From a virus, in the IMG/VR virus record IMGVR_UViG_3300017780_002571, positions 38,277 through 102,276 of that record: a stretch of 64,000 nucleotides of DNA; one strand, written 5' to 3'. This document shows, one piece after another, positions 5,461 to 63,864 of this stretch (the stretch's first letter is position 1; every line of letters starts with the position of its first letter). The translations under genes and the position numbers were made by a program. The notes beneath the pieces were generated by a model. It searched no databases, was not told the origin of the DNA, and saw nothing but the letters and a program-made list of their open reading frames with translations.

Positions 5461-5481
5461 GGTGAGAGATGGGGTTTGCAG

Positions 5482-6036
5482 TTAATTGCACAGAACCTGA
5501 TCCGGCTCATACTTATGACTTCTGCCAGAGAACTTACGGTGGCTCAGCCCCCTGTCTATGTTCCAGCGGTACCCTACCCAGTCCATGTGCACATAGGGTA
5601 ACAGAGACTGAAGTCCATAACTACTAAGGGCTATCTTGTCTAACCCCTGAATGATGTCCTGATGCTGTGGAATCAAGGGCATGAGTAGCTCCCGTCTCGC
5701 CACCCACAGGTGGTGGAATGGCCTAGCCGCCTGCACCTGACCGTCCTTGCACGCATGCTCCATGGTGAAGAGAGAGGAATGCCCTCCCCGCTCCATCTCC
5801 TCTACCACCTTCTCCATGGTATTAGGGGTCACGGTGTCATCGTCATCCAAGAAGGTCACGTACTTAGCAGTGCCCATCTGGAAGCCTTCCATGCGACCCC
5901 TCGTGATGTCCCCACGATACCCGGGGAGCACGAACACGTTGCAGGCCTGCCCTTGCAAAGACTCCAAAGCCTCATCAAGCCAAGCCTGATTGAGGTCCGG
6001 GTTAGTCAGGACGTGGCAGTCTATATCGTAGGTCAC
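5482..6036 (-). CDS. GT-A fold (GT2-like) glycosyltransferase
   Basis: WLDEALESLQGQ, GRMEGFQMGTAKYVTFLDDDD (DxD motif). Confidence 0.8.
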   Translation of the reverse strand: MTYDIDCHVLTNPDLNQAWLDEALESLQGQACNVFVLPGYRGDITRGRMEGFQMGTAKYVTFLDDDDTVTPNTMEKVVEEMERGGHSSLFTMEHACKDGQVQAARPFHHLWVARRELLMPLIPQHQDIIQGLDKIALSSYGLQSLLPYVHMDWVGYRWNIDRGLSHRKFSGRSHKYEPDQVLCN

Positions 6037-7043
6037 GCAAATCCCTTGTCTAACCTGCAGAGGAACACGGCCAGCTCAGCATCGTAGGTGCAAGACAATA
6101 GGTCTACAGAGTTGGGAGCGGTACTGAGGACCTTGCTCATACCTGTTGGAAAGACATAGACCGGATCAAACGTAATGACTCGGTTGCCAGTGGCATCTTG
6201 GCGAATACGAACGAAGAACTCCTGACCATCTAGGGGGTTGGTGAATGGGGCCAACGATCCGTTTTGAATCATGGTTAGGCGGTACTTAGAGCCCAGCCCA
6301 GACCCCAGCGCGCTCATGGCACCTGAGGAGGGTATGACCACCATGGGGTTGCCATGTACGATATCCCCGGTGGAGCGCTGATGATATACCACTCGCCAGT
6401 TACTACCGCCTGTGCAAATTACGAGCATCAGGTCATTGATGTAGGGGCGTCGGTTCACGGCCCCGGGGATATCTAGGGCCGCGCTGTGGGTCATGATCGG
6501 AGCCCCGGTAAACCACAAGATGCGCATGGCCCCACTAGTGGCTCCTCCAAGGTTGTTGATGGTCGTGGAGCCGGAAACAACAACGAAATTAGAGGAGACA
6601 GCCCCCAAAAACATATTACCTGCGGAGGCCACTGTAGGCGCATCGGCAAAGTCCAAGGGGGTAGTAAGCTTTCCTCCACCGAACTTGCCGAAGATACCTC
6701 CCGGGCTAGAGCGCCAGTCCGTGATAGAGCTCACCCCTCCAGCGTTCGTAACCACGAGGTACAGCCTAGCGTACCCGTTCCCGTTATTCCAGTTAGTGGT
6801 GCTGTTGGAGCTAGACACCACACCTGTAACGAGGTCCAAGACGATGTAGTTGTTGTTCAGAGAAAGGAGGGTCACAGTTCCATTTGGAACCACAACCCCG
6901 GCCCATGTTCCGCCCCAGAACCCCCAAGTAAGCCCTGCGGAAGTGGCAGGGTTTCTAGCGCCCATCTCGAAAGGCAGCAAGGCGGTAAAGTTGGCGTTGA
7001 TTGGCAGCTCTGGGCTTACCTGATTGGACAAGACGTTTAGCAT
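6033..7043 (-). CDS. Tail fibre / receptor-binding protein
   Basis: N-terminal ATSAGLTWGFWGG tail-anchor pattern; C-terminal IRQDATGNRVITF...LSTAPNSVDLL fibre-tip pattern; follows the tip protein. Confidence 0.7.
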   Translation of the reverse strand: MLNVLSNQVSPELPINANFTALLPFEMGARNPATSAGLTWGFWGGTWAGVVVPNGTVTLLSLNNNYIVLDLVTGVVSSSNSTTNWNNGNGYARLYLVVTNAGGVSSITDWRSSPGGIFGKFGGGKLTTPLDFADAPTVASAGNMFLGAVSSNFVVVSGSTTINNLGGATSGAMRILWFTGAPIMTHSAALDIPGAVNRRPYINDLMLVICTGGSNWRVVYHQRSTGDIVHGNPMVVIPSSGAMSALGSGLGSKYRLTMIQNGSLAPFTNPLDGQEFFVRIRQDATGNRVITFDPVYVFPTGMSKVLSTAPNSVDLLSCTYDAELAVFLCRLDKGFA

Positions 7044-7054
7044 GTTGTTAGTAC

Positions 7055-9523: not shown

Positions 9524-9955
9524 TCAGACTCCGTGGTATCGGAACATGCCAACCAGCTTGATGGTGGACAGAAACACCAGACGTTGCTCCACCACTTTCC
9601 CGGAACCACTGGAGGAGTGGATCAGGCTGCAGCGACCACCGGGATAGTCCCCGACGATGCCTACATGCTGAGGGTCAGACTCAATGGCGATGCAACACAC
9701 GTCCCCAAGCTGAGCATCCTCAAATGGGACCTCTCTCAGATTCTGTGCAATTAGTTGCAGAAAGCTAGTCCCATCTGGCACTCTGGGATAGCAGTTGACA
9801 TCGAAGTTCGGATCAACAAGACCAAGATTTCTGGCCACCCCAATTACCAACCCCACGCAGTCCACACCCACCCCCTTCACCCGTGCTTGATGGTGAAAGG
9901 GAGTACCAAGCCAGCTTCTTGCCTCGGTAACAATGGATTCTTTTGAAACGGTCAT
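9524..9955 (-). CDS. NlpC/P60 tail-associated peptidase (GTA g14-like)
   Basis: ARSWLGTPFHHQARVKGVGVDCVGLV with catalytic Cys; QHVGI His. Confidence 0.92.
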   Translation of the reverse strand: MTVSKESIVTEARSWLGTPFHHQARVKGVGVDCVGLVIGVARNLGLVDPNFDVNCYPRVPDGTSFLQLIAQNLREVPFEDAQLGDVCCIAIESDPQHVGIVGDYPGGRCSLIHSSSGSGKVVEQRLVFLSTIKLVGMFRYHGV

Positions 9956-10815: not shown

Positions 10816-13800
10816 TGGCGAATCTCACGAATACCTAAACCGGAAATACTGAACAGGCGCTCACCGTCTTCTTCTCGGAAGTTAACGAACTCACACGGCA
10901 GATGGTCCGTAGTGAACTTCACCCACTTATCGAAGGTGCCAGTCCAACGAAGGTTCGGAGCATCTGCGTCCGTGCGCCCAGTGATGAGCCCTGTCTCAAA
11001 GTCGATGTTGTAATCCGTTTCACGTACCAAAAGAGTGCGTGCAAGTGTCGTTGGGTCCTGTGACCAAAGCTGAAACCCTAAGGGAACTGGCCTGCGAATA
11101 GGTACATCTACCATCGCCGCAACTACTTGGTACCGCTTGAATAGCTGCAGAACGTTGGCAGTGGCAGTCAGAGAGGTTCGGCCCTCATCCCCAGAAGCCT
11201 CAAAGTCCTCCCAAGCCTTGAACCTAAAGGCTTGGGCTTGCCCTCTGCAAATCATAAAGAAGTTGTAGATGTCCACCAGCTCCAGACGGGTGTAGAGGTC
11301 CGGCCCCGTGGTCCACTTCCCAAGAGGGATACTCCAGTGAGAGTTACTGCTCTCGTGCCCGGAAACGCTGGTCACAACGGTGGTGCTGAACCCGGGTCCC
11401 CCAGAGAGGCCGTACCTGAATTCGGTGTTGAACCGAGGAGTGGTCGTAGGCAGCGGTATAGGCTCTGGATCAGGGGGATCAATAGTGGGCAGGGTGGTGA
11501 GAACCCCCACGGTACCGCGCTCACTAACGAATACCCCGGCCACGGTCCCGGTGCCTATCCATGGTCCATTCACCAGCGTGGGGGTAAGGTTGTTGGTAGT
11601 CAGGCCATTACCTATGCCACCCTTAGACCCGTTACCCCAAACAAACACCTCTCCACTGGCGTTGTAGGCTGCTGCGTTCCAATCCCCCATAGCCACGCCA
11701 ACCCAGTTGGTTGCCGTACCAATCTGTGCTGGTGCAGATAATGCGGAGGTGGTGTTTCCGTTACCGAGCACTCCAAGGGCGTTATTGCCCCATGTCCATA
11801 ACGTACCGTCAGTCTTTACGCCAATGGCGTTAGTCCCGTTCACCTGAACATCAAGCCATGGCCCCGCTGCAGCCAGCGTGAACATGCCGTCCTGAACACT
11901 CGTCGGAACTCCGTCTAGATATGGATTCCCGGCGTAGTACAAGGCCCCGCCAACACGAAGGGCGAAAGTGGCACCAGAGGCTGGTTGGCGGCTTACAACC
12001 TTAGACCAATTGGTGTACGCCCGGGACTCCTGAGTTAGGACCGACTTGGAAGTGAAGTCACCCACTCCAAGTTGTCCCGCTGTGTTGAATCCGGTGGACC
12101 ACAGCGTCCCGTTAGTACGGATGCCTGTAGTTCTGGCACTTCCTGTAGAGACACTAGCCCAAGGCCCTGCGTCGATAAGGGCAGGGGTGGGTCCTCCGGG
12201 AAGCTGAGCCATGTTCCCGTTCGAAGTACTGCCGAAGCCATACATGGCCCCATTAGCCTTTAGGGCAATGGAGTATCCATTGCCTGCAGCTACCTTGGCC
12301 CAGTCTGTGTCTGTACCGACTTGGACAGGAGACGGGAATCGGTCCACCCCGGACTGACCACACTGGCTTGAGAAGTTCTCTCCCCAAGCCCACAAGGTAC
12401 CATCTGCCCGGACAGCGAGAGAATGCTCTGACCCCATGCTGAGGTCTCTCCAACTCCCGGTGATTTGAGTAGGGGACAACACGTCCACCAGCGTCCCCAC
12501 TCCAGCCTCCCCGCTCGTATTCTCGCCCCATGTGTACAAGGCCTTGGGGGCTGGTGGTGTTGGCGGTGCTACTGGAGGGGCTGCGAGTATCCCCACTGCC
12601 CCGTACCCGCTAAGAGCGACTTGAACTGCCGTACCCCATGGCCCTGTCACTTTTTTAGGGGTGTAGGAGTTAGCAGTCAGCCCGTCCCCAAGCCCACCAC
12701 TGGACCCGTCGCCCCAAACAAATATCTCCCCATCGGAGTTGATGGCCGCCGCATTTTGCCCAGCCACAGCCACCATAACCCAATTCGTAGCCGTGCCTAC
12801 CTGAGTAGGGGTACTTATGTTGGGGGTGGTGGTCCCGTTGCCAAGTTTCCCGTAAGCGTTCTCCCCCCAAGCCCACAAGGTACCATCAGTTTTGACACCC
12901 AGTACGTCTTCTCCGTTCGTGCGAACGTGCAGCCATGGACCCGGAGCTGATAGGTTGTACCTCGCCTCATCTAAAGCCCCCGCCACGCCGTCAAGGTAGG
13001 GGCTCCCGGTGTAGTACAGAGCTCCACCTGATCGCATGGCGAAGATGCTGCCCCCAGATTGACCCGTGGTACATAGGTCTACCCAGTCTGTGTACCCTCG
13101 GGACTCAGCCGTAAACGAAGTCTTTTGGGAGTAGTCGTTGTATATCCCTAGTTCGCCGCTTCCGTTACCGCCCGTGCTCCACAGCGTCCCGTTAGTTCTG
13201 AGACCAACGGTAATGTCATAGGCAGAAATAACCTTGGCCCATGGACCTGCGTGTATCAGAAGAGGGGTTGTCCCGCTAGCGATCCCGGCCATCCGACCAC
13301 CGACGTTAAATCCGAATCCGTATAGGGCTCCGTTAGCCTTGATGGCAAGAGAGTAGCCGTTCCCGGCTGCCACTTTGGACCAATCTGTGTCCGTCCCAAC
13401 TTGGGTTGGGGAGGTGCGCCGAAAAGGGGACACTGCAGGGGTGCCGCACTGACCGTAGTTGTTATCTCCCCAAGCCCACAGAGTGCCATCAACAGCTACC
13501 GCTAGGGAGTGATTAATCCCCATGCTTAGAGCAATCCAAGCCCCTGCCACCTGCGTGGGGGACAAGACATCCACCGTGCCCCCCTGCCCAGTCTCCCCGG
13601 AAGAGCTCTCACCCCACGTGTACAACACACGGGAGGTTGGGAGCACCACGGGGGGTTGAGGGGTAAACGGCTGAGAGGTTAAGGTTAGCCCAGACCCACT
13701 CTTACTGATGGTCAGGGTGTTACTCGGCTGCCCATCGTAGAACGTATTGATGGTTGCGACCTGAAGACCAGATGGGAAGGCTGCCTCGTTTATGGATACG

Positions 13801-14795
13801 ATCCTAGCGCCTGCCACATCTGCAACTATGGTGTTTGGATTCGCAAAGGGATTAGCCAGAGCCCCTGCGGACCATGAGGTCGTCCATGTGAACGTAGTAA
13901 ACGGCCCTGTTGGGCCAAAGCACATGGCGGTGCCATCTACCGACTGATCCCAGAACGCGTTTATTGGGCTGTTCTCTCGGGCGAAGTACCCGTTGCGAAT
14001 TCCACCCCAACCGACGCCCCAGCCAACTAATCCAGTAGGGCTGGCTGGTGGAGTAAATGCCGGAGGTGCTGGCCAATCATCCAGACCGGGGAATGCCGTT
14101 GTGTAGATTGAGGCTGGGGGTGGGGTTGCATACCGCTCAGCACCATCGGTGATCCGGTACTGACAGAAGTTTCCGATCATCCGCTGCATGGTCCCAGCGG
14201 CACCAATGACTAACGGGGTAGCGGTGTACGGCACGTATGGGTTGGCCAGACTGTCCTCTATGAACGGAGTCATCTGGCGGTCTACCATCAGCCGGAATCC
14301 GAAGCGCCCGCCTTGCGTGGTTCGGATGATGGCGATGTGAGTCCACGTCCACGCTTGGAACTCCCAGTCCGTAGTAATGGTCAGATCGTTGCCGTACCCA
14401 AAAGTCCTGAATCGCACATTCCCGTTGGAGGTCAGGCTTAGCACCCATCCGTTCGTCAGGTTCTCGTCACAGCAAGAGGCTATGGCGTAGTTATTCCAGC
14501 TCTCGCAGTTCACGAACAGCTCGTGGGTGTGGTGGCCCGTGGCCGGGAACGTGCGGGACGCCACACCGTTGACAGGGCAGAGCGGTACGTTAATCTGAGT
14601 TGGTGGGTTCCCGGACATCCCAATACTGGTATCCGCCCATGTAGGGTCCCACTGAAGCACTACGCTGCTCTCTGACACAGCCCCCTGCTTTTGGGGGGCG
14701 GCCATGTAGAACTTGGAGTGGTCCCGAGTCTGGTTGTCGTCGTAGGCCGTACCCTTGATCAACAGGGTAACGTTATTAAATAGTGAATCTGGCAT
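10812..14795 (-). CDS. Extended distal tail protein: LamG-like + two RCC1-repeat propellers + C-terminal DUF2460
   Basis: WTHIAIIR / YRITDGAERY (LamG-like); repeated HSLAV-DGTLWAWG-N--GQ-G (RCC1); YGLSGGPGFSTTVV...FFMICRGQAQAFRFKAWED (DUF2460). Confidence 0.85.
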   Translation of the reverse strand: MPDSLFNNVTLLIKGTAYDDNQTRDHSKFYMAAPQKQGAVSESSVVLQWDPTWADTSIGMSGNPPTQINVPLCPVNGVASRTFPATGHHTHELFVNCESWNNYAIASCCDENLTNGWVLSLTSNGNVRFRTFGYGNDLTITTDWEFQAWTWTHIAIIRTTQGGRFGFRLMVDRQMTPFIEDSLANPYVPYTATPLVIGAAGTMQRMIGNFCQYRITDGAERYATPPPASIYTTAFPGLDDWPAPPAFTPPASPTGLVGWGVGWGGIRNGYFARENSPINAFWDQSVDGTAMCFGPTGPFTTFTWTTSWSAGALANPFANPNTIVADVAGARIVSINEAAFPSGLQVATINTFYDGQPSNTLTISKSGSGLTLTSQPFTPQPPVVLPTSRVLYTWGESSSGETGQGGTVDVLSPTQVAGAWIALSMGINHSLAVAVDGTLWAWGDNNYGQCGTPAVSPFRRTSPTQVGTDTDWSKVAAGNGYSLAIKANGALYGFGFNVGGRMAGIASGTTPLLIHAGPWAKVISAYDITVGLRTNGTLWSTGGNGSGELGIYNDYSQKTSFTAESRGYTDWVDLCTTGQSGGSIFAMRSGGALYYTGSPYLDGVAGALDEARYNLSAPGPWLHVRTNGEDVLGVKTDGTLWAWGENAYGKLGNGTTTPNISTPTQVGTATNWVMVAVAGQNAAAINSDGEIFVWGDGSSGGLGDGLTANSYTPKKVTGPWGTAVQVALSGYGAVGILAAPPVAPPTPPAPKALYTWGENTSGEAGVGTLVDVLSPTQITGSWRDLSMGSEHSLAVRADGTLWAWGENFSSQCGQSGVDRFPSPVQVGTDTDWAKVAAGNGYSIALKANGAMYGFGSTSNGNMAQLPGGPTPALIDAGPWASVSTGSARTTGIRTNGTLWSTGFNTAGQLGVGDFTSKSVLTQESRAYTNWSKVVSRQPASGATFALRVGGALYYAGNPYLDGVPTSVQDGMFTLAAAGPWLDVQVNGTNAIGVKTDGTLWTWGNNALGVLGNGNTTSALSAPAQIGTATNWVGVAMGDWNAAAYNASGEVFVWGNGSKGGIGNGLTTNNLTPTLVNGPWIGTGTVAGVFVSERGTVGVLTTLPTIDPPDPEPIPLPTTTPRFNTEFRYGLSGGPGFSTTVVTSVSGHESSNSHWSIPLGKWTTGPDLYTRLELVDIYNFFMICRGQAQAFRFKAWEDFEASGDEGRTSLTATANVLQLFKRYQVVAAMVDVPIRRPVPLGFQLWSQDPTTLARTLLVRETDYNIDFETGLITGRTDADAPNLRWTGTFDKWVKFTTDHLPCEFVNFREEDGERLFSISGLGIREIRQ

Positions 14796-21762: not shown

Positions 21763-21791
21763 ACTCTACCAGATCAAACCGCTGTTTGCAA
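21763..21791 (-). promoter_or_regulatory. Promoter TTGCAA-17-TAGAGT (extended -10) overlapped by palindrome
   Basis: The -35 hexamer overlaps the 21787-21800 palindrome. Confidence 0.55.
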
Positions 21792-21800
21792 TTAATTGCA

Positions 21801-45579: not shown

Positions 45580-45582
45580 GGA

Positions 45583-47305: not shown

Positions 47306-47307
47306 GA

Positions 47308-48633: not shown

Positions 48634-48759
48634 TGTGACCCCCCGACATAGCCGACTTCTCCAAGCACAAAATGAGCACTGCAGTGCCTGTGCCCGTGAA
48701 CAGGCAGAAGACCACTGCCCACAGTAGGACCTTTGCCCCGAGGGATATCTTGCCCCGCA

Positions 48760-50184: not shown

Positions 50185-50498
50185 AAGCCGGACACCTGCA
50201 CTTCCTGATTCGCCTGCTCCACCTTAGGGGCCTTGGCTTTCTCTTGGAAGTCGATTTCTGCGGCCTCGATCAGTTGCTTGAAGCCGAGGGCACTCAGGTG
50301 CTTGCAAATGGCGCGGGTCTCGCCCACCTTAGCCTTTTGGAATATCCAAGCAGGGCAAGAGCACCGACCATGGGTCATGTCCACCCGATAGGTCTTGCCA
50401 GTCTTGCTGGATTGAGACTTGACTTCAACAATGTCCCAACCGTGAGCGGTAGGAGTGCCGAGGACCCGGCTCAGTGGAGATGATGCGTGAACTTGCAT
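50181..50498 (-). CDS. SWIM zinc-finger protein
   Basis: CSCPAW...CKH. Confidence 0.8.
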   Translation of the reverse strand: MQVHASSPLSRVLGTPTAHGWDIVEVKSQSSKTGKTYRVDMTHGRCSCPAWIFQKAKVGETRAICKHLSALGFKQLIEAAEIDFQEKAKAPKVEQANQEVQVSGL

Positions 50499-50613
50499 GA
50501 TGTGCCCTTTCTTGGCTGGTATAGATTCCGTCTCTATGAGTTAATTATACATCAGATTTTGCCAGTTTGTACAATTTATTTTCTGGTCTAAAAATAAATT
50601 TAGACCCGTACAC

Positions 50614-52560: not shown

Positions 52561-52651
52561 GGTGAGTGCCCTTTCTTGGCTGGTAGAAAATTTATCCTAT
52601 GTAGAGATTATAACATAGGTTTTTCTAGTTTGTACAATTATTTCAGTGCAA

Positions 52652-53685
52652 TTAACTGCAATTTTTACGAGGCTGATCCCACTTGGATGGCAGAGAGGCG
52701 GCCTCAGTCCACGTGCGGCATTGAAGTGCCCTATCAAAGGCTATCAGGCTACGAGTCTTAAATCCCATATCGTCGTGCTCTTTGGAAAGGATGTGCCACC
52801 CTTCGGAAACGTACAGGGCGGCTAGGGTGCGCTCTAAGTGGGTCATGTGGGCTCCCCTTCGGCTTTCGGAGATGGCTTGTCTACCCCCTCCCGGTAGCCC
52901 ATGTACCATGCGGCGTGCTCGTCTGTGCCCTCTGCGTAGGGGTTGGTGTTCTTACGCTGGATGCCCTTCCCCACCCCCTGCTCGTAGGCAGTGGTGATCA
53001 TGAGGAGCTTCAGCTCTGGCAGTCTGAAGGGCGTGGCAGGGTGGTGACCTAGTGGAGGCTTCCAGAGCTCACCCCCATGGTAGGTGTACCCGAGGGCTTT
53101 AAGAGTCTCCTTGGCTGCAACATCCTTCATTGCAGGCGCTGAGGGTGCCTCCCCCATCGGAAGCCAGCCAATGGGCTTGCCATGCCCCTCAGTGAAGCAA
53201 TCATGCGTCCAGTTCCAGCCAGCGAATTGCCACGCATCAATCCCATCATTGTCAAAGCAATTGGTCCCGATAGTCCACACTGGTTCTGAGGTGTCCTCTA
53301 GGGAGTTGTCGCTGAATTCGACAAGCAAACGAAGCACAGTGCTATCGCGTGGAGCCGTTTCAATCGGCTGCCATTGGGGCGAAGGTGCGGACTGCGGTAG
53401 CAGGGCAACAAGGCGCACCACAGCCCTGCGAACGTGTGCAATATCCATCGGGTCTGAGTGCAGGGCCTTACTTAGGGCGAGGGCTGTGATCCGCACCATT
53501 GACCCTGAGAGTGTTGTTAATCCGCAGTTGCAATAAGGCAGACCGCATTGAGCGCAGTTCCTGCTTGGAGGGACTGCCACGGCCTCATTGAGGGCCTTCG
53601 CAATGGGGGTACCATTGCCGCCCACAAAATCACAGAACTGCGCCGCCTGCCCTATCAGGTCAAGGTCAATCAATACTTTGGTCAT
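52652..53685 (-). CDS. Two hypothetical genes (52652-52846; 52843-53685 containing a WQPIETAP DUF551-like module)
   Basis: ATGA coupling; WQPIETAPRD...PIGWLPM. Confidence 0.65.
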
Positions 53686-55391
53686 TTGGCTTCTCCTGTT
53701 GGTGCTTGGGGTGTTGTTGGCGGGTTGGCAGACTCTTGGCACGAGTAGCAGACTGCATACTTCCGCAATGGGACGTTTTTCGGTAGGTCTGTATTACCCA
53801 TAGGGTTGCCGCACTTGGCGCAGTCGTAAGGTGTCTGGAACGCGCTAGAAACCGAGTTGTCGTGCCCGTAGTCAGCCACCTCGTTTGGGCGCTCTACGTT
53901 GTGGGGGTTGTCCTGTTTAGTCGGTGCTGGTGCTTGGGTGGCCAGCCAACGTCCCCTTGGTGTGCATGGTCTGCCGCAGTTTGCATAGTCCTCGCAGCAA
54001 ACTTGTGCTTCAGGTGGCAGTGCTGGTGCTTGTGGTGCTGTGATGAACTTGTGCTGGAGTCCATAGTCAACGGCTGACAACACATGCTCAATAGCCTTGC
54101 GATAGCCTCCACACGGCAGTCCACTGCTTGGGCAAACTCCATTCTCGTCAGCACAATCGCGGCACCCACCGCCGTACTGGGCCACGTACTCAACAATCTC
54201 GGAGGTGTTCAAGACTCCAACAACTTGACATCCGTCCTTGGCCGCCTTCATCATGGCAATTTGGCTGCGCAACGACTGCACTGTCTGCTTGTCGTAGTTC
54301 CATCCGTGCCTTCCCCGCAGGTCGTTGGACAACTCTGGGTGCGTTTCTTCACACGCCACTGCATATGCTTGCAACGCTGCCTTTGCATGCGGGTCGTGGT
54401 CCACGTCCAGCACAAAGTATTCGCAGCCGTGATGCTTGCCACCGGGTGCACTGCTTCCATCGGTGCGGGTGACGATGAATTTGCGAAACAGCCCCTGCGC
54501 CTCTGCTGGCTTGCTGAGGTCTCGCTCTGGTAATCTATTGGTTGCTGGTGCTTGTGGTGCTGCGAGGGGGACCACACAAAGGCCGCGAATTTCATAGGCG
54601 TCGGGAAACTTTGATACCCTCTCTTGCCAACGAGGGAGGTCGATAGGGTCTATGTCGCGCCAGTCGCTCCAGCCTTCCTTGGCATCACTCAAGTCGAACC
54701 AGCGCCCTTGATGCGCAACAGGCTCCACTGGTGCTTGTGGTGCTACAAACAGCTTGCACAATGGATGGTGGTGCTTTGGTCCGCAAAGAGGTCCACCGCA
54801 TGAAAGAGGGATACCCATGCTGTTCGTCTCGCGTGCTGGCTCACTTGCTTGTGGTGTTGCGTTATCGCAGACACCTTGAGCAGAGAAGCATGCAGGGCAC
54901 ATTCGTTCATCTGTGCATTTTTCTTTCTGTGCGTGGCGATAGCCCTCATTCATAAGCACCAACTCACGAGGTGTAAATGGCTCTTCCTTGGGTGCTTGAG
55001 GAGTGCACAGCTTATTCAGGGAGCTGATGGCGGAGTCCACGATGTCCCGGTCTGCCTGTGACCCGTGTATCTCACAAGCCCCATGGGACCCACATAGTAC
55101 GGAGGATAGGGCCTCTACCGCTGCAGGGATTTGAGCAAGCTGGTCTCGGAGGGCTGCGCTCTCTTTCAGGACGTTACTATGAGCATTGGCCAACGCGGCG
55201 TGCATGTCACTTAGGCGCAGGTACTGCACCCGGTAACCAGCTTGCTCAGCTTTGACTCGAAGGGAAGTCTCCTCGGCTAGGCGAATCTGCAGTTGCCGAA
55301 TGCACTGGAGGGCTATATCGAGAAGGTCTAGTTCCTTCTCAGGTTTGCCCCCGGCAAGATAGCCTCTCAGTAGTTCAATTGGATTTTTCAT
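53682..55391 (-). CDS. Mosaic multi-module hypothetical protein (569 aa)
   Basis: Short Cys-rich and other modules separated by PQAP linkers. Confidence 0.7.
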   Translation of the reverse strand: MKNPIELLRGYLAGGKPEKELDLLDIALQCIRQLQIRLAEETSLRVKAEQAGYRVQYLRLSDMHAALANAHSNVLKESAALRDQLAQIPAAVEALSSVLCGSHGACEIHGSQADRDIVDSAISSLNKLCTPQAPKEEPFTPRELVLMNEGYRHAQKEKCTDERMCPACFSAQGVCDNATPQASEPARETNSMGIPLSCGGPLCGPKHHHPLCKLFVAPQAPVEPVAHQGRWFDLSDAKEGWSDWRDIDPIDLPRWQERVSKFPDAYEIRGLCVVPLAAPQAPATNRLPERDLSKPAEAQGLFRKFIVTRTDGSSAPGGKHHGCEYFVLDVDHDPHAKAALQAYAVACEETHPELSNDLRGRHGWNYDKQTVQSLRSQIAMMKAAKDGCQVVGVLNTSEIVEYVAQYGGGCRDCADENGVCPSSGLPCGGYRKAIEHVLSAVDYGLQHKFITAPQAPALPPEAQVCCEDYANCGRPCTPRGRWLATQAPAPTKQDNPHNVERPNEVADYGHDNSVSSAFQTPYDCAKCGNPMGNTDLPKNVPLRKYAVCYSCQESANPPTTPQAPTGEAK

Positions 55392-56693
55392 AAGTCTTTA
55401 CCTCTTCCTTCAATGTTGTCGATAAACAGTTTGAGAGCATGGTACCTCCCGGTAAAGAAGGCCTCCTTGCCAACTTGGTACAGGAACCCCAACGCTATCA
55501 TGGGGAAGCCGATCAGGCCGTACACGAGAATGAAGTACAGCTTCGTCTCAAGGGATGCAGTTTTCTTGATCATGATTTCTCCCCAAGTGCTTTGTAGTGC
55601 CAGAAGATGTGCAAGGAAATTTGCACTCCAGCGATGAGGTACAGGCCTACCACAACCCAAGGGCGAACCCCCTGAAGCTCGGATAGGGACGCGATAATGA
55701 GGAGGCTCCAAGAAGACACGGAGCTCACCACGGCTAGGTATTGGTAATTAGTCATTTGAGCTCTCCCATGGCTTCCACCCTTTAAAAATTGCTGCGACGG
55801 CCACGGCGGCAATGGCTATCCAGAAGCCAAACCACGCGATACCCTCTGCTATGTGCTTTGCTGCTTCTGGAGTCATCCCTGCTCTCCCTTCCTAGTAAAA
55901 ACGCGGCGAACAATTGCACCAGACAAGCAACGTGACGCGCTAAAGTCAACCTCTGCACCATCGGGTTCGTCTTTGAGAAGCTGATCCCAAAATTGAACGA
56001 TGTACTTTGGCAAGCCGTTCTCGTTCATCTTATTGGCGTACTGCCTAATCTCGTCATCAGTAGCATGTACCGACAGTCCAAATTCGTTGGTCATCCCTGT
56101 GACTCCCCTGTAATCCCGTGGGCTGCTTCTACTTCACAGTCACCGTCTTCGCTGACACTGGTGATTCGATAGCGGACAGTTCTGGCAAAGATGCTGGCGC
56201 TCAGTTCATATTCATCACCCACCTTTGCATCTTCACCAAAAAGGTCGTGAATGATCTGCGCATCCGCTGGGTGTTCGTACCAGCTATCGGTGTCGGGTAT
56301 TTGCCAACAAGTGAATTCCGTCTTCGTGGGTGCTGGTGCTTGGGGTGCTGAATTTCGCATGAAGTAATCAGCTATCCATGCCATTCGACCCATATGGGGA
56401 AGGGCAGTAGGGCAAAGAGCAAATGCTCGTTGCATAACGCTTTTCGGTGTCATGTCAGTACAACCCTTGTCGTCGTAAGCAACAGGCTCCGCACCTTTCA
56501 GCGCATCTAGTTCTGCGCGTAGGGCGTCACGTTCTGCCAGTGATTCAGTAACATCGTGGTTGGCTTTCTGCACATACCCATTCAATCGCCCCACCTCTGC
56601 TTGCAGGGCTGCGTAGTCCTCCGCCACCTCGCGCAAAATGGCCTTCCCTAATCCGTGGCAAAACGATTCAAGTCGTTCTATAGCTGTACTCAT
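55388..56693 (-). CDS. Small genes (55388-55573, 55570-55755 membrane proteins; 55873-56094; 56091-56693)
   Basis: Coupled ORFs; two are hydrophobic. Confidence 0.6.
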
Positions 56694-56997
56694 TGGGCTC
56701 TCCTAGGTCGTTAAATTGCATACTCTGCTTGTATTGTAGCAGGTTAGCGGAGTTTGTCAAGTAGTAGGCTCAGCCGGGAGGATGCTCCCGTTTGCAGTTA
56801 ATTGCACTGAGGCCTACCTTCGTGGCCACCCAATAATCAGGACACAGGCCAGTAAGACTAGGAAGAAAATCAATGCGGGGATCATGTGCAACTCCTTGCG
56901 ATAAATACGACCACTGCAAGTACAGCGGTCACTTTGCCTATCGCCACTACCACAGTGGCTACGATACGAATCACGCCTACTACGAACTCTGTTGTGC

Positions 56998-57360
56998 TCA
57001 CACCAACTCCTCTGGTACTTCAACTTCCGCACCCAACTCATGCTCCACGTAGCAGCGCACGGCTGCGATCAGTGTTGTGGGGCCGTAAAACATTGGTACT
57101 GTGTCGTAGTCAGACACCGCGCCTTGCCATGCAACAGGCTGGAGTGCGTCGTTCCAGCCGACATTGATCTTCTCGCGCCAAGTGATCGGGCCACCTTGTG
57201 CCCAGTCGGTGGAGTAGTTGAAGCCATCCTCATAGAAGCCCCAGCTCTGGAACATGGACCGCCAGTAGTAGTCGTCGTGCGGCTGGTTTTTCGTACTCTC
57301 GCACTTCGCCACCAGATAGTTAAGCTGCCGTGGGGTTGCTTCGGATACTTTGATTTTCAT
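56998..57360 (-). CDS. NinX/DUF2591-like protein
   Basis: LNYLVAK...YSTDWAQGGPI...GPTTLIAAVRCYV. Confidence 0.8.
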   Translation of the reverse strand: MKIKVSEATPRQLNYLVAKCESTKNQPHDDYYWRSMFQSWGFYEDGFNYSTDWAQGGPITWREKINVGWNDALQPVAWQGAVSDYDTVPMFYGPTTLIAAVRCYVEHELGAEVEVPEELV

Positions 57361-58125
57361 GACCCCTCCGGTAAATTAACTGACACGACAAAGAACTCTG
57401 GCTTCGTCTTTGATTGTGGGTGTTCGAGTCGCCACTCTGTCTCCGTCCAGCATTTCCAAGCCTCCGCTGAGCTCTCGTCCTTGAAGGGTCGGGATAGGAC
57501 CTTCCATAGCTGTTGCTTGTCGGTGTGGCTGTACGTCCTGACTACATAAAACGCCATGGAACTTTCCTTCACGCGATTCTGGTTATGGTTCGGAAGTCGG
57601 TCTGAATACGCTTACCCCTAGAGAGGGTTAGTACGTGCTTCTCCCAGAACCAACGGTTGTCCATGGTGGACCCTCGAATGGTGTTCCTACTGGTCAGCCA
57701 ATCGGGTGCGTTCTCCGCTGAGAACACCTGAGGTTTTCCCCCACAGAAACGGTGTTGCATAACGAATCGCATCACAGCCCCTCATCAGCCAGTGCTTCGG
57801 CCAAGATCAATAGGAACAGGGAGCGGTGCAACGAATCGCTGTACCCGGAAAAGTCGTAACCAACCTCATCCTGTACCGCGCCCCATACCATGTGAGGAGT
57901 TAGCTGCTTCCCTGTTTCAGCAAACTCAAGCAACGCCGTACTGATCGGCCCGTACTGCAATGCCTCGTCGTCCGAATGGATACGGTAGTCTCGGTACTTC
58001 CGGTTGAGGTTCTGAACCCCCGTCCAAACGCCTGATGGGACCCACGAGGACGAGGCCGTGTCGTACCTTTGGCTCTGGCATTCAATCCTCGCCTCACGGG
58101 CTGCTGCAAATAGTAGTCTGCTCAT
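57357..58125 (-). CDS. Three hypothetical genes (57357-57572, 57569-57775, 57772-58125)
   Basis: Coupled ORFs. Confidence 0.6.
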
Positions 58126-58726
58126 GTCTTGGCCCCCCCAATAACCGCTAATGCTATGGCTTTCTGAGGGGTGTCTCCGAACTCGCAGTCACGGTGGCCA
58201 GCTAACCACCCTCCGACTGCCTTGTAAGGGAAACAGTCATACTTCTCCGCAATCGGGGCGATTGTTGCCCAGTTGCGGTGGTCGAAGACATACCAGCACC
58301 ATTCGTAGTCATCCTTGGACACGATGACTGGGCGGTACACCATGACGCCCCTCTTGCTGGACCTTATGTGCCGTGGCAGGTAGCCAATAGCCAAGGCCAG
58401 TGCCTTGTCGATCTTTGCGTCAGTCATTTTCTCGCTCCTAAGATGACAGCCATAGCGATGGCCTTCTGAGGAGAGTCTGCGCAAACCATAAGGTCCCCTC
58501 TGCGGATAAGCCACCGCTGCCACTTGAAAGGTGTCTCCTCTGGAAACAAGGCATACCGGGCAGCTATTGGGCCGATGACGTTCCAGTCGCAGTAGTCGAA
58601 GGAGCGCCAAGCGTTACCCCAGTCGAACAAACTCTTGAGGTTCACATACACCTTGCCTTTGCTGACGGTTACGTGAGGCCACCCAATCGCCATTGCGAGG
58701 GCTTTGGAAATTTCGAGGTCAGTCAT
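58122..58726 (-). CDS. Tandem paralogues (58122-58427, 58424-58726), NinX/DUF2591-like
   Basis: Both read MTD..I.KALA.AIG...FD...W..I.PIA..Y..FP...D.PQKAIA.AVI.GA. Confidence 0.75.
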
Positions 58727-59988
58727 TTCAAGCATCCTTGGTTTTTCACAAACCGTTGACCCGGTTTGCATGGGTATTCGCACAAGCTGTTCAGGCACCG
58801 TGCATCACGTTGTTCCTTGACTCCAGCCTTCACGTCAATGGTGACTCCCAGAACGATAGCGGCCCCAGTAAGTGCCATGACGACGAGGCAGGTAATCATC
58901 ACGCTCTGAAGCCAGTGCTTAATGCTGTCGATGTGCATGGTCATTCTCCCTTCGCTGGTATTGCAAACGCGGTGTCCTGACCCATACCTACCGCTGCCAT
59001 GTTCATGGGGGCGTTCAATCGGTCATAGGCGGCCAAGTCCTCTGGCCACTGCATGTCTCGCTCCATGTCCCGATACTCTTTCTGGGTCAGAGAGATTCGG
59101 CGGTCATGGGCTTTCTGGTTGCGGAGCACGTCAGCTTGCTGGTCCGTAAATTCCGAGAGTGACATATCAAACATGGATAACCTTTCTTGGTTGCGAACTG
59201 TCTGGCTAAACTGGCTCTCGCATCCTCCGCCTCGGAGCTAAGCCTCTACTACAGAGACCTAATGGGAAAGCCGTTTAGTCAGACCCCGTAGGGCCTAGCT
59301 ATTAGAAGTACTCCACTCGGGATGGGTCCGTATTCTTGAACCGTGCTTCATAGGGCGTGTTCTCAATCGTACCGTGAACATGCATCCCGGGAATCTGCCC
59401 CTTTGGCACCTCAATAGCCAGCAGGTACCGAAACCCTTTGTAGTTCTTGGAATCATGCAACACCTGCTCCAGCATCGCCATCTGGCCTTTGCGAATATCT
59501 GCCGAACAGGTGCTGCCCTTGAGGGATTCATTGACCATCTTTTTGAGGGTCTCCACTTGGAAGGTCTTGGTCATTTCATTGCCCTTTCTTGGCAGTGTTG
59601 AGGAATTAGGTCGGGGCTGGTTTCCCGGCCCCTTAGGAGTACTTCATTTCACCCTATGTATTAATTATAACAGGGTTTTTAGGTTTGTCAAATAAAGTTC
59701 TGAACTGTTTGCAATTAACTGCAATTATTTTTCAAACCGGAGGAGGTTATCCAAGGCCTTCTGGGCAGCGTGAAGACTGGGGCAGTCCACTTCCACAGTA
59801 AAAGAGGTGCCGAGGCCGGGAGTGCGGCGAGACACTGCAAACCTGCCTCCAGAGGGCACGATCACGTACTTGGGCAGGGCAGGCGCAGGGGTGAAGTCAA
59901 GGGCCACTTGCTGTAGCCCCATAGAGCCCCTAGGAGGCCCGTAGTGGGGCTTTGGAGGATTAACGTAGGGGGTAGTAGCCTTACGCAT
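58723..59988 (-). CDS. Four small hypothetical genes (58723-58944, 58941-59174, 59302-59574, 59725-59988)
   Basis: ORFs with RBSs or conserved leaders. Confidence 0.6.
59200..59284 (-). ncRNA. Candidate structured RNA (three-way junction)
   Basis: Long closing stem plus two internal hairpins fill the intergenic gap; G-U pairs favour the minus strand. Confidence 0.5.
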
Positions 59989-60000
59989 GAAACCTTCCTC

Positions 60001-60726
60001 CTAGGGCCGAGAATCGGAGGCCTCAGAAGACTTGGGATTTTCGAGAGGTGCGCCTTTGAAGATGTGGGAGAACCCTGCAGGTACGTGAATATCCAGCATC
60101 GTCTTGCTCACCTCAGTGAGGGAAATCAAAAGGCTGTCCATGTCGAACAGATCAGAGTCAAGGACCTCCTCATCCGCCTTTCGGGCGTAGGGGTTGGAGT
60201 TAGCCTTCTTGGGTGGCAGCTTCCCATGGAATATTTCTACACCAATAAACTTGCTGGCCTTAGACAGGCTCTGGTCCATGTGCTCCACCACAGCCAGTGC
60301 TCCATTCTTGTGCTCATACTCGGTACGCATGTCTTCCTTGCCCTCTATGCGTTGGCCCTTGGACTTGAACCCGTTCAAGGACAGCACCTGATGGATGTCC
60401 TCCTTCGCCTTGTTGAACTCCTCCTTGGACTTAGGGTTCACGTCCACGGTGTGAGACTTCATCCCCGTCACCAGCTTGTGATCCTTGTTGGGGCGAACCC
60501 CCAGTACGGAGGCTAAGCCTGCAGCTACCTTGCCTGAGTACCCTCCGCCCTTGTTCTCCCCCATGTGAGTCCCACGCACTCTCCGCAGGAAGCTGGCAAA
60601 CTTCGGCCCAGTGCTTACAAAGGCTGGCTTAGACGAATCAGTGAACCGTCCCACTTCATCATGAAACGGGTTGAACTTGGTGACTGGCTTGGCGACGGCG
60701 ACATTCTTGAAGACGTTTGAGTACAT
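60001..60726 (-). CDS. Putative capsid-internal protein
   Basis: VTKFNPFHDEVGRFT N-terminal motif; ARKAD followed by an acidic tail. Confidence 0.6.
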   Translation of the reverse strand: MYSNVFKNVAVAKPVTKFNPFHDEVGRFTDSSKPAFVSTGPKFASFLRRVRGTHMGENKGGGYSGKVAAGLASVLGVRPNKDHKLVTGMKSHTVDVNPKSKEEFNKAKEDIHQVLSLNGFKSKGQRIEGKEDMRTEYEHKNGALAVVEHMDQSLSKASKFIGVEIFHGKLPPKKANSNPYARKADEEVLDSDLFDMDSLLISLTEVSKTMLDIHVPAGFSHIFKGAPLENPKSSEASDSRP

Positions 60727-60735
60727 GATTGGTCC

Positions 60736-61914
60736 TTAAATTTGTAGTCCAGTTGCGGTAACTGGGGTCTTGCTGGTTTTTGATGGCTTGATGGGTTGGT
60801 TAGGGTACTGAGGCCCCGTGTCCTCCTCATCCCAATCCTCATCCTCAGGCTCATAGGCCTCCTCTAGGTCTTTGTTCCTTGGCAAGACGGTATTGGGGTC
60901 TCGTAGCATTCCAGAGTAGGCGGATGCCAAGTCGTCTAGGGAGTAGAAGTCTCCCTCTTGCGTGGAGGCATCAGCCTTGCGTACTGGCCCCACCATGATG
61001 GGAGGCCACACCTTCGGATTGATGTAGTCCTTGAAGGCTATGGCCGGGGTGTTGCCCAAATGCTTGGAGACTGCCACCGATACGGCCTTCTGTACCTTAG
61101 CCAGTTCGGCCTTGGTGGTGGGCACAGGGTACTTGGCCACCTCCATCTTTGCCACCGCAGTGCCGTTCCACGTGCGCAAGTCTTTGATCAGGAATTCCTT
61201 CCCGCTATTCCGCTTCAGGAAGGCCCCTGCAGAGGCCCCAGAGGACCTGAAGACCTTCTCGGAGTCCCCAAGGCTAGGCAGGCGGGTAGAGAGGTAGCTA
61301 GCCAGTTTGGCGTCCACCAGAGTCTTGGAGGTAACCTGCCCAGACTTCGATGGGAACTTGAACGTGATCTTGTTCCCGTCCAGAGACACGTGTTCCTTCT
61401 GCAGAGTGGAAGCGCCAAAGGCCTTGGTGTCGGCCTTCGTGTCCTTAGCGGACCCCGGCCTAAAGGCGGTACGGGAGATAAGGTAAACGGTAGCCGCATC
61501 GTCCCGCTCTCGGGCAGACTTGGTTGGGTCCATCATGGCCTTCACTGCAGCCCGTTGTACCTTGGAGACATGAGAGTCTAGACGCTCCACCCGCTCGTGC
61601 TTGACAGCATCAGAGTTGGCATGAAACTCCTTGGTGTAGACAGCAGTTGGGCGACCTTTCGCATCCACCCCGGACACAACCTTGGCATTGGACTGGACAT
61701 CAATAGAAACCTTGGTCCAGTTTGGAGGGATGGGTTGACTCAGGCTAGCCATCTTCCCCGTGACTTCTGGAGACAGGGCGGAGCCATCAGAGTTCACCCA
61801 CTTGCGGCCACTCAGGGTTAGGGGAATAGCCCTCCCAGAACTGAACCCATCAGCAGACGCAAATAGTCCCTTATCATCATGATGAAGGTTCATCTTCAGG
61901 ATTTTTAAGTACAT
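60736..61914 (-). CDS. DNA topoisomerase IB (bacterial/poxvirus type)
   Basis: IPPNW, GVDAKGR, FRPGS (R), FPSKSG (K), KDLRTWNGT (KxxR), LGNTPAIAFKDY (N, Y). Confidence 0.93.
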   Translation of the reverse strand: MYLKILKMNLHHDDKGLFASADGFSSGRAIPLTLSGRKWVNSDGSALSPEVTGKMASLSQPIPPNWTKVSIDVQSNAKVVSGVDAKGRPTAVYTKEFHANSDAVKHERVERLDSHVSKVQRAAVKAMMDPTKSARERDDAATVYLISRTAFRPGSAKDTKADTKAFGASTLQKEHVSLDGNKITFKFPSKSGQVTSKTLVDAKLASYLSTRLPSLGDSEKVFRSSGASAGAFLKRNSGKEFLIKDLRTWNGTAVAKMEVAKYPVPTTKAELAKVQKAVSVAVSKHLGNTPAIAFKDYINPKVWPPIMVGPVRKADASTQEGDFYSLDDLASAYSGMLRDPNTVLPRNKDLEEAYEPEDEDWDEEDTGPQYPNQPIKPSKTSKTPVTATGLQI

Positions 61915-61967
61915 AGCTTGGGTGGTAAATGTTGAACCCCCCAAGTGTACTACCTACCCAGAAAATA

Positions 61968-63752
61968 TCAATCGTTGCGCTCTGGCGGGACGTTCTCTGG
62001 GAGTAGCACTTTCACGTGCACGCGGCCCCCAACGTAATGCCAGTCATGTGGGTTCCCGGTACGCGCCGAAGCAGCAATGCAGTACGCCTCAGCCTCCTCT
62101 CTGGTGCAGTCTATGAAGCCTAGGCTGGTGCCGTACCGCATTACGTCAACATCACATTCGTCCTTGCTCATACCTTCACCTCACGAAGGTTGGTACCCAC
62201 GATGCATTTCAGCTCTCTCGCTAACCATATGCCGCCCACTGCGGTGCACTTAGCCCGACCCTCGCTTTGCATACTGAATGCAACGTATGCCACGGGAGCT
62301 GTGATCAGGAGTAGGACCACTAAACCCCACAGGATTTCTTGCTTCATACGTCCGCCTTCGGAGCCATCTGATTGATACGGATGTCGTACCAGTCGATCAC
62401 TGTACCTATGCGGGGCAGCTTGCCGTTTCCGTAGTCCTTGGCTTGGAAGATACGGCAGGTATGGAAGCACCCGTTCAAATCTTTCTTTGCCGCTTTTGGG
62501 TCCCGCGAATCGACAGGGCACAGCCACCCACTACGCAAGTACTTTGGAGCTATCCGGCCATGCTCTTCGAAGTCTTTGGGGAACAGGTGGTCTTGAGCAT
62601 CAGGCCATGCTTCCTTTGCCTCAGAGCACAGGCCCCATGTACAGGTTGTGGACTTATCCCCGGGAGTGGTGTCGTCCACGTGGCGCAGCTCGACCCCCTT
62701 GAGGATCAGACCACGAATGCGCTCAAGGGCTGCTAGGTATCGCTCTTTTGGTAGGTACAAACTCATGCTTTCGCTCCTATTTTTAAGTGTCCAGTTCTCA
62801 TCGAGCCTGCAACGTAAAGCTCGATACTGCATTCAAAGCCCTCCGCTATCAGCTCGTTTGCAGCTAATTGCATTGGGCCGTTGTTGCGTACACCACCCCA
62901 GTACACGCAGTGGTAGAGGGCATACGTGTCTAAGGCCCGGTAAACAGCGTCGTGCTTCAGAAGAAGCTCCCGGATCGCGGTCTTGGTTGGGTACCCACTA
63001 CGGGTAGATATTGGCATCTGTAATCCTTTAAGGCTTAACCACCAAGGAGGAAGGTGTCCGGTTAGATAATCCCACACTTACGGGCTTGTTCCAACATCTT
63101 CGCAGTGGTATTTGTGAGGTTGGCGGCTACGTGCGGCGCAATGCCCTCACTCGTTAACTGCTCGACCACCTCAGCCCGTAACGCGGCATCAGCGTTTTGA
63201 GTGGACGCGGCCAGTGCTGCGGCTTTTTTATCGGCTTGGATTTTGTGGTATTCCGCCTCCGTCACATAGCGCATACCTGCAGGGGCTGGGGGGCGGCGAG
63301 GGCGGCGGTGGTTCGAACCTAGCTGCCGATTGAGAGAGGTCAGCAGAGATAGAACTTGTTTGAGGCTTGGATCAATAGTAGTCATTTGAGGCCCTTTCTT
63401 GGCTGGGAGATTTCTCTCGATGAGTTATTATACCACGTTTTTAGGTTTGTACAATAACTCGATCATCCAAGTGCAATTAATTGCAATTATTTTTGGCCCA
63501 CGCTACAGCATCCTCAAACACCCTGAACCCCTCGCAGGGAGTACAGTTCCAAACGGTACCGCTATCGGTTTCATCCATCTGAAACACCCAGTACATCGGG
63601 TCCGACACTCCGGGGAGCCTAGAACCGATATCCGACAGCGACACCTCAAAATGGGCCTTGAATTTTCCATCCTTACCGCAGTCGATGGTGAAGGTTTCAG
63701 ATTTGAATTCCTGATTAACAAAAATAGTTCGGACTTGGGGGCTTTTTGACAT
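61968..63752 (-). CDS. Six small hypothetical genes (61968-62171, 62168-62347, 62344-62766, 62763-63017, 63062-63385, 63477-63752)
   Basis: Coupled or promoter-led ORFs; 62344-62766 is Cys-rich. Confidence 0.6.
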
Positions 63753-63864
63753 TTTGACCCTTTCATGGTCTTTGAGTACTGGAAACTACTCCAGCGCCTG
63801 TATTATAGCACGCTGGATAGTTTGTCCAATAGCCCCCATGCAATTAGCTGCAATACTTTTTGGG

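Follow-up and report, generated by a model that had tools for sequence, protein, structure and literature searches.

Which protein reads a short palindrome that recurs at regular intervals along a phage genome, inside genes as well as between them? The question is raised by a 64,000-nucleotide stretch of viral DNA (the window; positions 38277-102276 of IMG/VR record IMGVR_UViG_3300017780_002571), across which a reading made without database searches (the sequence-only reading) had noticed an evenly spaced 14-bp palindrome and proposed that a dimeric protein binds it. We analyzed the window together with the full 102,276-bp genome of the record, here called G000. The two ends of the record share a 123-bp repeat, and the assembly is therefore circular; its G+C content is about 55%, and nearly all of its genes lie on the minus strand. 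With moderate confidence, we take the palindromes to be docking sites on double-stranded DNA for a phage-encoded symmetric homodimer, most probably the product of a gene at genome positions 12198-13133 on the minus strand.

The window contains 10 exact copies of the palindrome TGCARTTAAYTGCA, 7 copies with one mismatch, and 2 with two mismatches (19 in total), which reproduces the counts and coordinates of the sequence-only reading. Dinucleotide shuffling of the window left 0.00 exact copies and, when as many as two mismatches were allowed, 0.57 (maximum 4). A scan of the full genome and of relatives had also been proposed; in the whole of G000 (102,276 bp), we found 15 exact copies, 29 at no more than one mismatch, and 31 at no more than two, or roughly one per 3 kb, and the reversed sequence of the same genome, used as an additional control, contained none. 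The claim of even spacing held when compared with random placement of 29 sites on circular G000: the coefficient of variation (CV) of the intervals was 0.51 compared with 0.95 for random placement (P = 1.5e-4), and the largest site-free gap was 7.4 kb compared with an expected 13.9 kb (P = 9e-4). When eight related genomes were pooled (284 intervals), the intervals followed a gamma shape of 2.5, with short and long gaps both depleted. No switch of strand polarity along the genome, as in Chi, KOPS, or Ter signals, was seen.

Sixteen copies lie inside called genes, compared with 0.94 ± 0.91 after synonymous-codon shuffling, and none of the 300 shuffles reached 16; the DNA itself is therefore selected, and the copies are no by-product of the encoded proteins. 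Frame 0 is unused because the motif contains TAA, and the other two frames yield xQLIA and AINC peptides. About half of the sites fall between genes or no more than 25 nt from a stop codon, four times as many as chance would give, and the rest lie deep in genes. The earlier estimate that about half of the copies are intragenic was thus correct, but the placement of the array with respect to genes is not blind.

The form of the site indicates what kind of molecule reads it. Copies occur as A..T, G..T, or A..C variants, and the G..C combination, in which both halves would be altered, never occurs, so that one half-site is always perfect. The half-sites are spaced one helical turn apart, and the sequence of the arms is conserved beyond mere pairing. 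On the transcribed strand, the G..T, A..C, and A..T variants stand in a ratio of 5:6:4, indicating that there is no selection for RNA pairing. These features fit a dimeric protein on duplex DNA that reads the center indirectly, and they make the dimeric reader of the sequence-only reading likely. The W-K...M-W extension that had been described on either side of the palindrome is present but weak (0.5-0.9 bit at each position). When all 31 sites were aligned together with flanks of 45 nt, no information content was seen beyond 16-18 bp, on which ground we rejected the idea that the motif belongs to a fixed late promoter. A sigma-54 promoter was also rejected: the site resembles TGGCAC-N5-TTGCA, but on a reading of the sequence the spacing is off by one.

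We compared G000 with the genomes G002, G003, G004, G007, and G008 and with those of the cultured phages DLP5, DLP3, and RcZahn. The array, in the general form TGCAA-N4-TTGCA with local variants, runs through the clade, in uncultured relatives as well as in the three cultured phages: 25-55 copies per ~100 kb, a CV below 1, and intragenic copies, with conservation in relatives. In G002, which has about 47% protein identity to G000, the same motif occurs at the same density. Only three positions are shared between the two genomes (two intragenic ones, in the PPDK-like and a phosphatase-like gene, and one intergenic), and the others are shifted by hundreds of bases, which indicates that sites turn over while their density is kept. 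More distant relatives carry TGCAAC-NN-GTTGCA (47 copies in G003, 48 in G004, 37 in G007, and 24 in G008). DLP5 contains 26 exact copies of TGCAATCAATTGCA and about 35 sites overall, and RcZahn contains 26-28 sites. Across eight genomes and 62 loci, the half-sites TGCAAT, TGCAAC, TGCACT, TGACAT, GGCAAT, and CGCAAT were found, also in mixed pairs.

The comparison of DLP5 and DLP3, which share 82% nucleotide identity, further supports the claim that selection acts on the DNA. Their 17 common sites showed no change in 170 outer positions; the five changes, which include a CA-to-TG flip, are all confined to the central 4 bp, and the flanks are 70-97% identical. One short palindrome is thus held under strong purifying selection, at even intervals and through genes, in a whole clade of ~100-kb phages that includes cultured Stenotrophomonas and Rhodobacter phages considered for therapy. 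The repeat is not mentioned in the papers on DLP5, DLP3, and RcZahn, and a full-text literature search for the motif strings returned only unrelated primer matches.

Two observations on relatives stand beside these. At loci L110, L113, L121, and L124, the site is asymmetric, TGCAAC-TG-ATTGCA, with one TGCAAC half and one TGCAAT half, and such sites are hard to reconcile with a strictly symmetric reader. A relative with 31% G+C (G005, loci L048-L053) has no TGCAA-N4-TTGCA; a nonpalindromic 13-mer, ATGATTCAGATGA, is repeated in it about eight times.

A fixed position of part of the array beside promoters had been overlooked by the sequence-only reading. About a quarter of all sites lie 7-12 bp upstream of the -35 element of sigma-70-type promoters and thus hold a fixed regulatory position, centered near -51. 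On the gene strand of G000, and only there, lie 13 near-consensus promoters (TTGaCAAAC-N-TATAAT), of which 8 have a palindrome 8-32 nt upstream of the -35 element, 5 of these at 8-12 nt. All five promoters of the early region within the window carry an upstream palindrome. In the distant G003, the palindrome stands 7-12 nt upstream in 7 of 18 conserved promoters, and several of the other promoters have an intrinsic terminator in its place. Four more strong promoters of this class, TTGaCAAAC...TATAAT, in the nucleotide-metabolism region of the window (50544-50574, 43521-43551, 36204-36231, and 34367-34394), have no palindrome, which sets the middle promoters apart from the early ones. The sites and their promoters are listed below in window coordinates; palindromes have no strand, and the promoters are on the minus strand.

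5477-5490: exact palindrome, TGCAGTTAATTGCA; overlaps the stop of gene 5482-6036 (minus strand), 97 nt upstream of the next start codon.
9746-9759: palindrome with one mismatch; between called genes, or within the alternative reading frame 9524-9955 (minus strand).
14930-14943: palindrome with one mismatch, TGCAATTGATTGCA, with a DLP5-type center; in the 1368-aa tail gene 14795-18901 (minus strand), 135 nt from its stop.
17831-17844: palindrome with one mismatch; deep within the same 1368-aa tail gene, 14795-18901 (minus strand).
21787-21800: exact palindrome, fully symmetric; directly after the stop of gene 21801-22247 and 68 nt upstream of the start of gene 20705-21718.
26184-26197: palindrome with one mismatch, head-gene region; intergenic; the head protease gene ends 22 nt before it, and gene 24877-26115 begins 68 nt beyond it.
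28322-28335: palindrome with one mismatch; in the 549-aa gene 27050-28699 (minus strand).
34762-34775: exact palindrome, intragenic and conserved in position; in the phosphatase-like gene 34342-35070, with a homologous site in G002 (residue ~99 versus 109).
38098-38111: exact palindrome, intragenic and conserved in position; in the PPDK-like gene 37121-39346, with a homologous site in G002 (residue 412 versus 420).
41070-41083: palindrome with two mismatches, the weakest class of copy; near the end of the ThyX gene 41053-41850, beginning 17 nt before its stop.
41870-41883: exact palindrome; at the 3' end of a reading frame of 68 aa, the ThyX start codon following after 19 nt.
46005-46018: exact palindrome, fully symmetric; 32 nt inside the called start of reading frame 45583-46050, and may precede the true start.
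48612-48625: palindrome with two mismatches; 5' end of reading frame 47959-48633.
52647-52660: exact palindrome with promoter; shares bases with the stop of gene 52652-52909; the -35 element of promoter 52637-52607 follows after 9 nt.
52607-52637, minus strand: sigma-70-type promoter TTGTACAAAC...TGTTATAAT, paired with palindrome 52647.
56793-56806: exact palindrome with promoter; 7 nt past a stop codon, the promoter beginning 32 nt downstream.
56733-56760, minus strand: sigma-70-type promoter TTGACAAAC...TGCTACAAT, 11 of 12 consensus positions.
59710-59723: exact palindrome with promoter; 1 nt past a stop codon, the promoter beginning 17 nt downstream.
59664-59692, minus strand: sigma-70-type promoter TTGACAAAC...TGTTATAAT, 12 of 12 consensus positions.
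62859-62872: palindrome with one mismatch; intergenic, 26 nt upstream of gene 62344-62832.
63472-63485: exact palindrome, fully symmetric, with promoter; overlaps the stop of gene 63477-63752, the promoter beginning 17 nt downstream.
63427-63454, minus strand: sigma-70-type promoter TTGTACAAAC...TGGTATAAT, paired with palindrome 63472.
63839-63852: palindrome with one mismatch, with promoter, which begins 9 nt downstream.
63802-63829, minus strand: sigma-70-type promoter TTGGACAAAC...TGCTATAAT, paired with palindrome 63839.

The gene for the candidate reader (genome 12198-13133, minus strand; locus L040:12198-13133:-) comes next after the RuvC gene and lies 25 kb away from the window. Its product is a protein of 302-311 aa belonging to PHROG 17202, with counterparts DLP05_067 in DLP5 and gp66 in RcZahn, and its family has more than 200 homologues, those on long contigs being on contigs of ~100 kb. 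The gene is present in every motif-bearing complete genome examined, and two near-complete relatives that lack the motif also lack the gene. A palindrome lies within 200 nt upstream of it in 36 of 44 non-redundant loci (82%), whereas every other 200-nt bin within 10 kb on either side has a site in no more than 23% of the 44 loci. In 22 of these 36 loci, the -35 element follows 5-9 nt after the upstream site, whatever the local variant. ParB and KorB have palindromic sites of 13-16 bp, one of them at the regulator's own promoter; here, likewise, the palindrome has 14 bp, and one copy stands before the candidate gene.

No other universal gene has an upstream site in all seven of seven genomes; the head protease gene comes next, with five of six. 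In DLP5, RcZahn, G003, G004, and G008, the palindrome at this gene lies no more than about 80 nt upstream of the start codon or overlaps it, and the G000 counterpart (26184-26197) stands just downstream of the gene, not upstream. The site conserved at the head protease gene may mark the start of the head-gene operon.

In the AlphaFold model of the candidate, residues 65-200 are predicted with a predicted local distance difference test (pLDDT) value above 90, and the first ~60 residues are disordered. VIA-align matched the central domain to the DNA-binding domain of ParB with parS (6s6h, Z 7.7 over 119 residues), to Spo0J (1vz0, Z 7.2), and to the KorB domain with its operator (1r71, Z 6.8, 106 of 114 residues), followed by 8qa8 (Z 5.8), 3mkw (Z 4.8), and 1zx4 (Z 4.7), SopB, P1 ParB, and VirB being among the proteins matched. 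ParB-family entries make up 6 of the top 14 structural matches, although a Z below 8 can reflect a common helical arrangement. The central domain may have a helix-turn-helix fold resembling the DNA-binding domains of ParB and KorB. These matches cover the DNA-binding domains only: the ParB_N CTPase clamp domain with its GxxRxxA motif was not found in the candidate, and a Pfam search of 49 family members gave nothing significant and no ParB_N match. A prediction with two copies of the protein gave a symmetric homodimer with a score of 0.73 (best control 0.00); among proteins of solved structure, 20 of 30 pairs and 1 of 23 single chains attained the mark used for this score. The dimer runs agreed in at least 67% of contacts at a pLDDT of ~70, and the putative DNA-contact helices were left largely free. 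Members of the family also carry a short conserved N-terminal peptide (KSPxMKLMK or LSLLKGGKK) before the disordered linker, which, judged from its sequence, looks like a partner-binding motif.

Several points weigh against this protein as the reader. Its co-occurrence with the motif is confounded by shared ancestry, and conservation of the upstream site might reflect nothing more than a conserved promoter that is not autoregulated. A site center near -51 is neither a classical repressor position nor a classical activator position. The fold match is only moderate, since Z values of 7-8 are common for helical domains, and the top match is the unrelated Raf1 N-domain (Z 9.3). Foldseek of the model against the PDB returned nothing at E ≤ 0.001, and neither a profile search against PDB sequences nor the Pfam search of the 49 members linked the candidate to ParB, KorB, or a Pfam family. 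Covariation between protein and site variant is weak: one column, in which K changes to R with the change of TGCAAT to TGCACT in two lineages, compared with ~0.5 columns expected by chance. Lastly, a binder that has no clamp or spreading domain does not itself explain the even spacing, and ~70% of the sites have no promoter.

Other gene products fared less well. The sequence-only reading had named a ParB-like open reading frame (ORF) in the window, 47308-47910, as one candidate; it matches no Pfam or PHROG family, BLAST connects it only weakly with ParB_N-type proteins, and two motif-bearing genomes, DLP5 and G002, lack it; we therefore rejected it. An HU-like protein (genome 11491-12117) was set aside because it is found only in G000 and G002. 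The early region of the window also holds a gene for a topoisomerase IB of the eukaryote/poxvirus type (60736-61944, minus strand; Pfam Topoisom_I, E = 5e-22), which was discarded as binder because none of the compared relatives has it.

Since the spacing is not explained by a binder that does not slide, a second reading stays alive, in which the binder is a ParB_N protein encoded beside the terminase genes that would be loaded as a CTP-dependent clamp at the palindromes and slide for 1-2 kb. We consider it unlikely. Sliding would directly explain the even spacing of loading sites, and sliding of KorB over as much as 1.5 kb from its operators has been described (PMC11790492), in keeping with the 2-4 kb that separate the palindromes. 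G000 encodes two such proteins, one of 263 aa (genome 5099-5890) and an adjacent ParB-methyltransferase fusion, and the ParB_N domain carries a GxxRxxA-like motif (GHTRRLAA). A ParB_N gene adjoins the terminase genes in the annotations of DLP5 and RcZahn, and BLAST finds ParB_N-type proteins in the other genomes. In three genomes of the TGCAAC type, a palindrome overlaps the ParB_N start codon (G004 at 34468 and 34506, two copies 38 bp apart; G007 at 6520; G008 at 54773), but no site stands at the start of the ParB_N gene in G000, DLP5, or G003. Beyond the ParB_N domain, neither the alignment nor a low-confidence model (pLDDT 61) shows a conserved helix-turn-helix region, the C-terminal halves of these proteins are unrelated between genomes, and BLAST gave no link between the G000 protein and those of DLP5 and RcZahn. 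The two readings are compatible, as a clamp protein could work with a separate DNA-binding protein.

It is also improbable that the sites are cis-acting signals for DNA transactions, be it preferred cutting of branched replication intermediates by the RuvC-type resolvase of the phage, a Chi-like signal that works in both directions for its helicase, Cas4-type nuclease, and RecA, or programmed nicking as in T5. The motif does co-occur with a universal module of an SF2 helicase, RecA, two resolvases, a Cas4-like exonuclease, and an SSB-like protein, G000 encodes an ATP-dependent ligase, and even spacing would suit a signal that is needed near any junction or break. RuvC prefers to cut at (A/T)TT↓(G/C), and each half-site contains TT↓GC, which resembles this preference. 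RuvC requires no 14-bp palindrome, however, and known Chi and nick sites are asymmetric. Such signals also leave unexplained both the fixed distance of 7-9 bp to -35 elements and the near-invariant site before one particular gene.

Between the SF2 helicase and RecA genes lies a gene for a MerR-type winged-helix regulator (genome 16652-17122 in G000; DLP05_060), which might read the sites as RacA reads ram; we regard this as highly improbable. The MerR_1 domain is recognized with E = 3.7e-9, the PHROG annotation is "transcriptional regulator," the gene is syntenic in G000, G002, DLP5, G003, G004, and G008, and its recognition helix differs between the TGCAAT and TGCAAC groups. The proposal is weakened by RcZahn, in which a hidden Markov model search of the record minus its last 1.6 kb did not find the gene despite 26-28 sites and in which the helicase-RecA interval holds other genes. 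No conserved site stands at the MerR-type gene. The same interval encodes a small universal protein (G000 genome 16177-16650, minus strand; DLP05_061; RcZahn gp59) whose C terminus contains the conserved motif NLGNYES.K..VS...PC. Its G000 version bears a tail rich in Lys, Ala, and Pro, and the G000 ParB_N protein has a similar one; the small protein may be a recombination mediator or a DNA-binding protein.

Very unlikely, too, is a conserved host protein as the reader. The outer TGCAA/TTGCA is common to phages of very different hosts (Stenotrophomonas, Rhodobacter, and uncultured ones), and these bases resemble LacI/PurR-type operators. Against this, the half-site variants TGCACT, TGACAT, and GGCAAT track phage lineages, the hosts span alpha- and gammaproteobacteria, between which we know of no common factor with this site, and the site before the gene of a phage DNA-binding protein points to a phage reader.

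A role of the motif in RNA, as a small hairpin that serves as terminator or processing site, was rejected as exceedingly improbable, since, although many sites are at the 3' ends of genes, the stem has at most 5-6 bp, is AT-rich in G000, and lacks a T tract, the arm sequence itself and not pairing alone is conserved across the clade, the pair-breaking A..C variant (6) is about as common on the transcribed strand as the wobble-compatible G..T (5), with no bias to pair-keeping variants, and none of the terminator-like matches in window 44001-64000 coincides with a palindrome there.

For the preferred reader, the homodimer encoded at genome 12198-13133, we propose the following mode of action. 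The homodimer would bind its ~30 sites on the phage chromosome and, because it has no ParB CTPase clamp domain, would be expected to sit at them rather than slide. At the site upstream of its own promoter, this looks like autoregulation; at the other sigma-70-type early promoters, the protein would presumably tune initiation, and by analogy to KorB we favor repression as a guess. The remaining sites, kept every 2-5 kb and placed within genes where no intergenic space is available, would extend the reach of the protein over the entire ~100-kb chromosome with its unidirectional transcription. These sites could be roadblocks or insulators between transcription units, which fits because sites occur where relatives have terminators, or they could anchor a protein-DNA scaffold, for example in the plasmid-prophage state of DLP5. 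DLP5 has been reported to be temperate, with a prophage maintained as a phagemid, and its DNA (MG189906) to be heavily modified, only 4 of 36 restriction enzymes cutting it (PMC5834331).

A broader version of this proposal, which we offer as a doubtful extension, is that the array and the clamp-less protein of ParB/KorB-like fold mark the whole phage chromosome, a dimer every 2-4 kb defining it as one organized object. In such a "split ParB," the docking sites would attract the separately encoded ParB_N CTPase proteins, among them the DNA methyltransferase fusion, and these would spread silencing, or heavy DNA modification of the DLP5 type, along the DNA from one site to the next; the spacing would then have to be even.

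In its way of working, the array seems comparable to the operators of KorB, to stoperators, and to the Cluster O mycobacteriophage repeats, but it is a member of none of these. KorB acts at 12 O_B operators on the IncP plasmid RK2 (PMC11790492). As in RK2, one palindrome of 13-14 bp recurs every few kb on a mobile replicon of 60-100 kb, some copies standing beside -35 elements, including that of the regulator's own operon, and others far from promoters; the DNA-binding domain of the candidate aligns to the operator-bound KorB domain (1r71, Z 6.8). Unlike KorB, the candidate has no ParB_N CTPase clamp domain and no sequence similarity to KorB, and no ParA/IncC partner was found among the phage ORFs by motif scan. 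That scan looked only for the ParA-type motif KGGxxK[ST], in the ORFs of G000, DLP5, RcZahn, G003, G004, and G008, and gave no real match; its single hit is a low-complexity stretch of a 1466-aa RcZahn tail protein. The phage array also differs from the 12 sites of RK2 in having 30-55 sites, many of them intragenic, at statistically even spacing.

A likeness in form is also seen to the Cluster O mycobacteriophages, which carry 17-bp dyad repeats, TGTTCGG-N3-CCGAACA, in 34 copies in Corndog (PMC4351075). Both arrays comprise more than 30 copies of one palindrome, between and within ORFs, with invariant arms, a variable center, and no orientation rule, and no function or binder had been assigned. 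The repeats of Cluster O differ in that their sequence, host phylum, and phage lineage are unrelated, and neither even spacing nor a link to the gene of a binder has been reported for them.

In L5 and other Cluster A phages, stoperators are dozens of sites for the gp71 repressor, many of them away from promoters, which are thought to block elongating RNA polymerase. Such genome-wide, elongation-blocking sites would fit the transcription of G000 in one direction. A stoperator is an asymmetric 13-bp site whose orientation to transcription is strictly fixed, whereas the sites studied here are palindromic, and their asymmetric centers show only a 2:1 strand bias and occur in both orientations (TCAA 21 versus TTGA 9 in DLP5; CCCG 25 versus CGGG 15 in G004). 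The comparisons with stoperators and with partition sites in the sequence-only reading were reasonable as analogies, but membership fails, as the sites are palindromic and follow no orientation rule and no ParA-like ATPase was found. Because the binder lacks a clamp domain and a ParA partner and the sites lack an orientation, we place the array in neither the KorB nor the stoperator family.

Bacterial chromosomes carry arrays of a related kind. Noc with NBS, RacA with ram, SlmA with SBS, and MatP with matS each involve tens of dispersed palindromes of 12-16 bp, intragenic ones included, which are read by a dimer to organize DNA rather than to control individual genes, and Noc belongs to the ParB family. 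These arrays differ from ours in that they lie on host chromosomes, are confined to particular regions, and keep no fixed distance to promoters; to our knowledge, no array of this type is known in a phage.

What is new here is a candidate binder that, as far as the models indicate, represents a new protein family: its DNA-binding fold resembles that of ParB and KorB, a clamp domain is missing, and its promoter is apparently autoregulated. A named candidate makes the question of the reader directly testable in DLP5 or RcZahn. If this protein indeed silences, insulates, or scaffolds an entire phage chromosome, global control of the KorB type would extend from plasmids to phages, and one protein with one 14-bp site would offer a simple handle on the gene expression of these phages.

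Two of the three site positions shared with G002 fall in a stretch of the window (34342-39346) in which a PPDK-like gene, two dual-specificity-phosphatase-like genes, and a 368-aa gene form a module. By BLAST, the PPDK/phosphatase module is present in G002 and DLP5 and not in G003 and G004, and the annotation of RcZahn lists one PPDK and two phosphatases.

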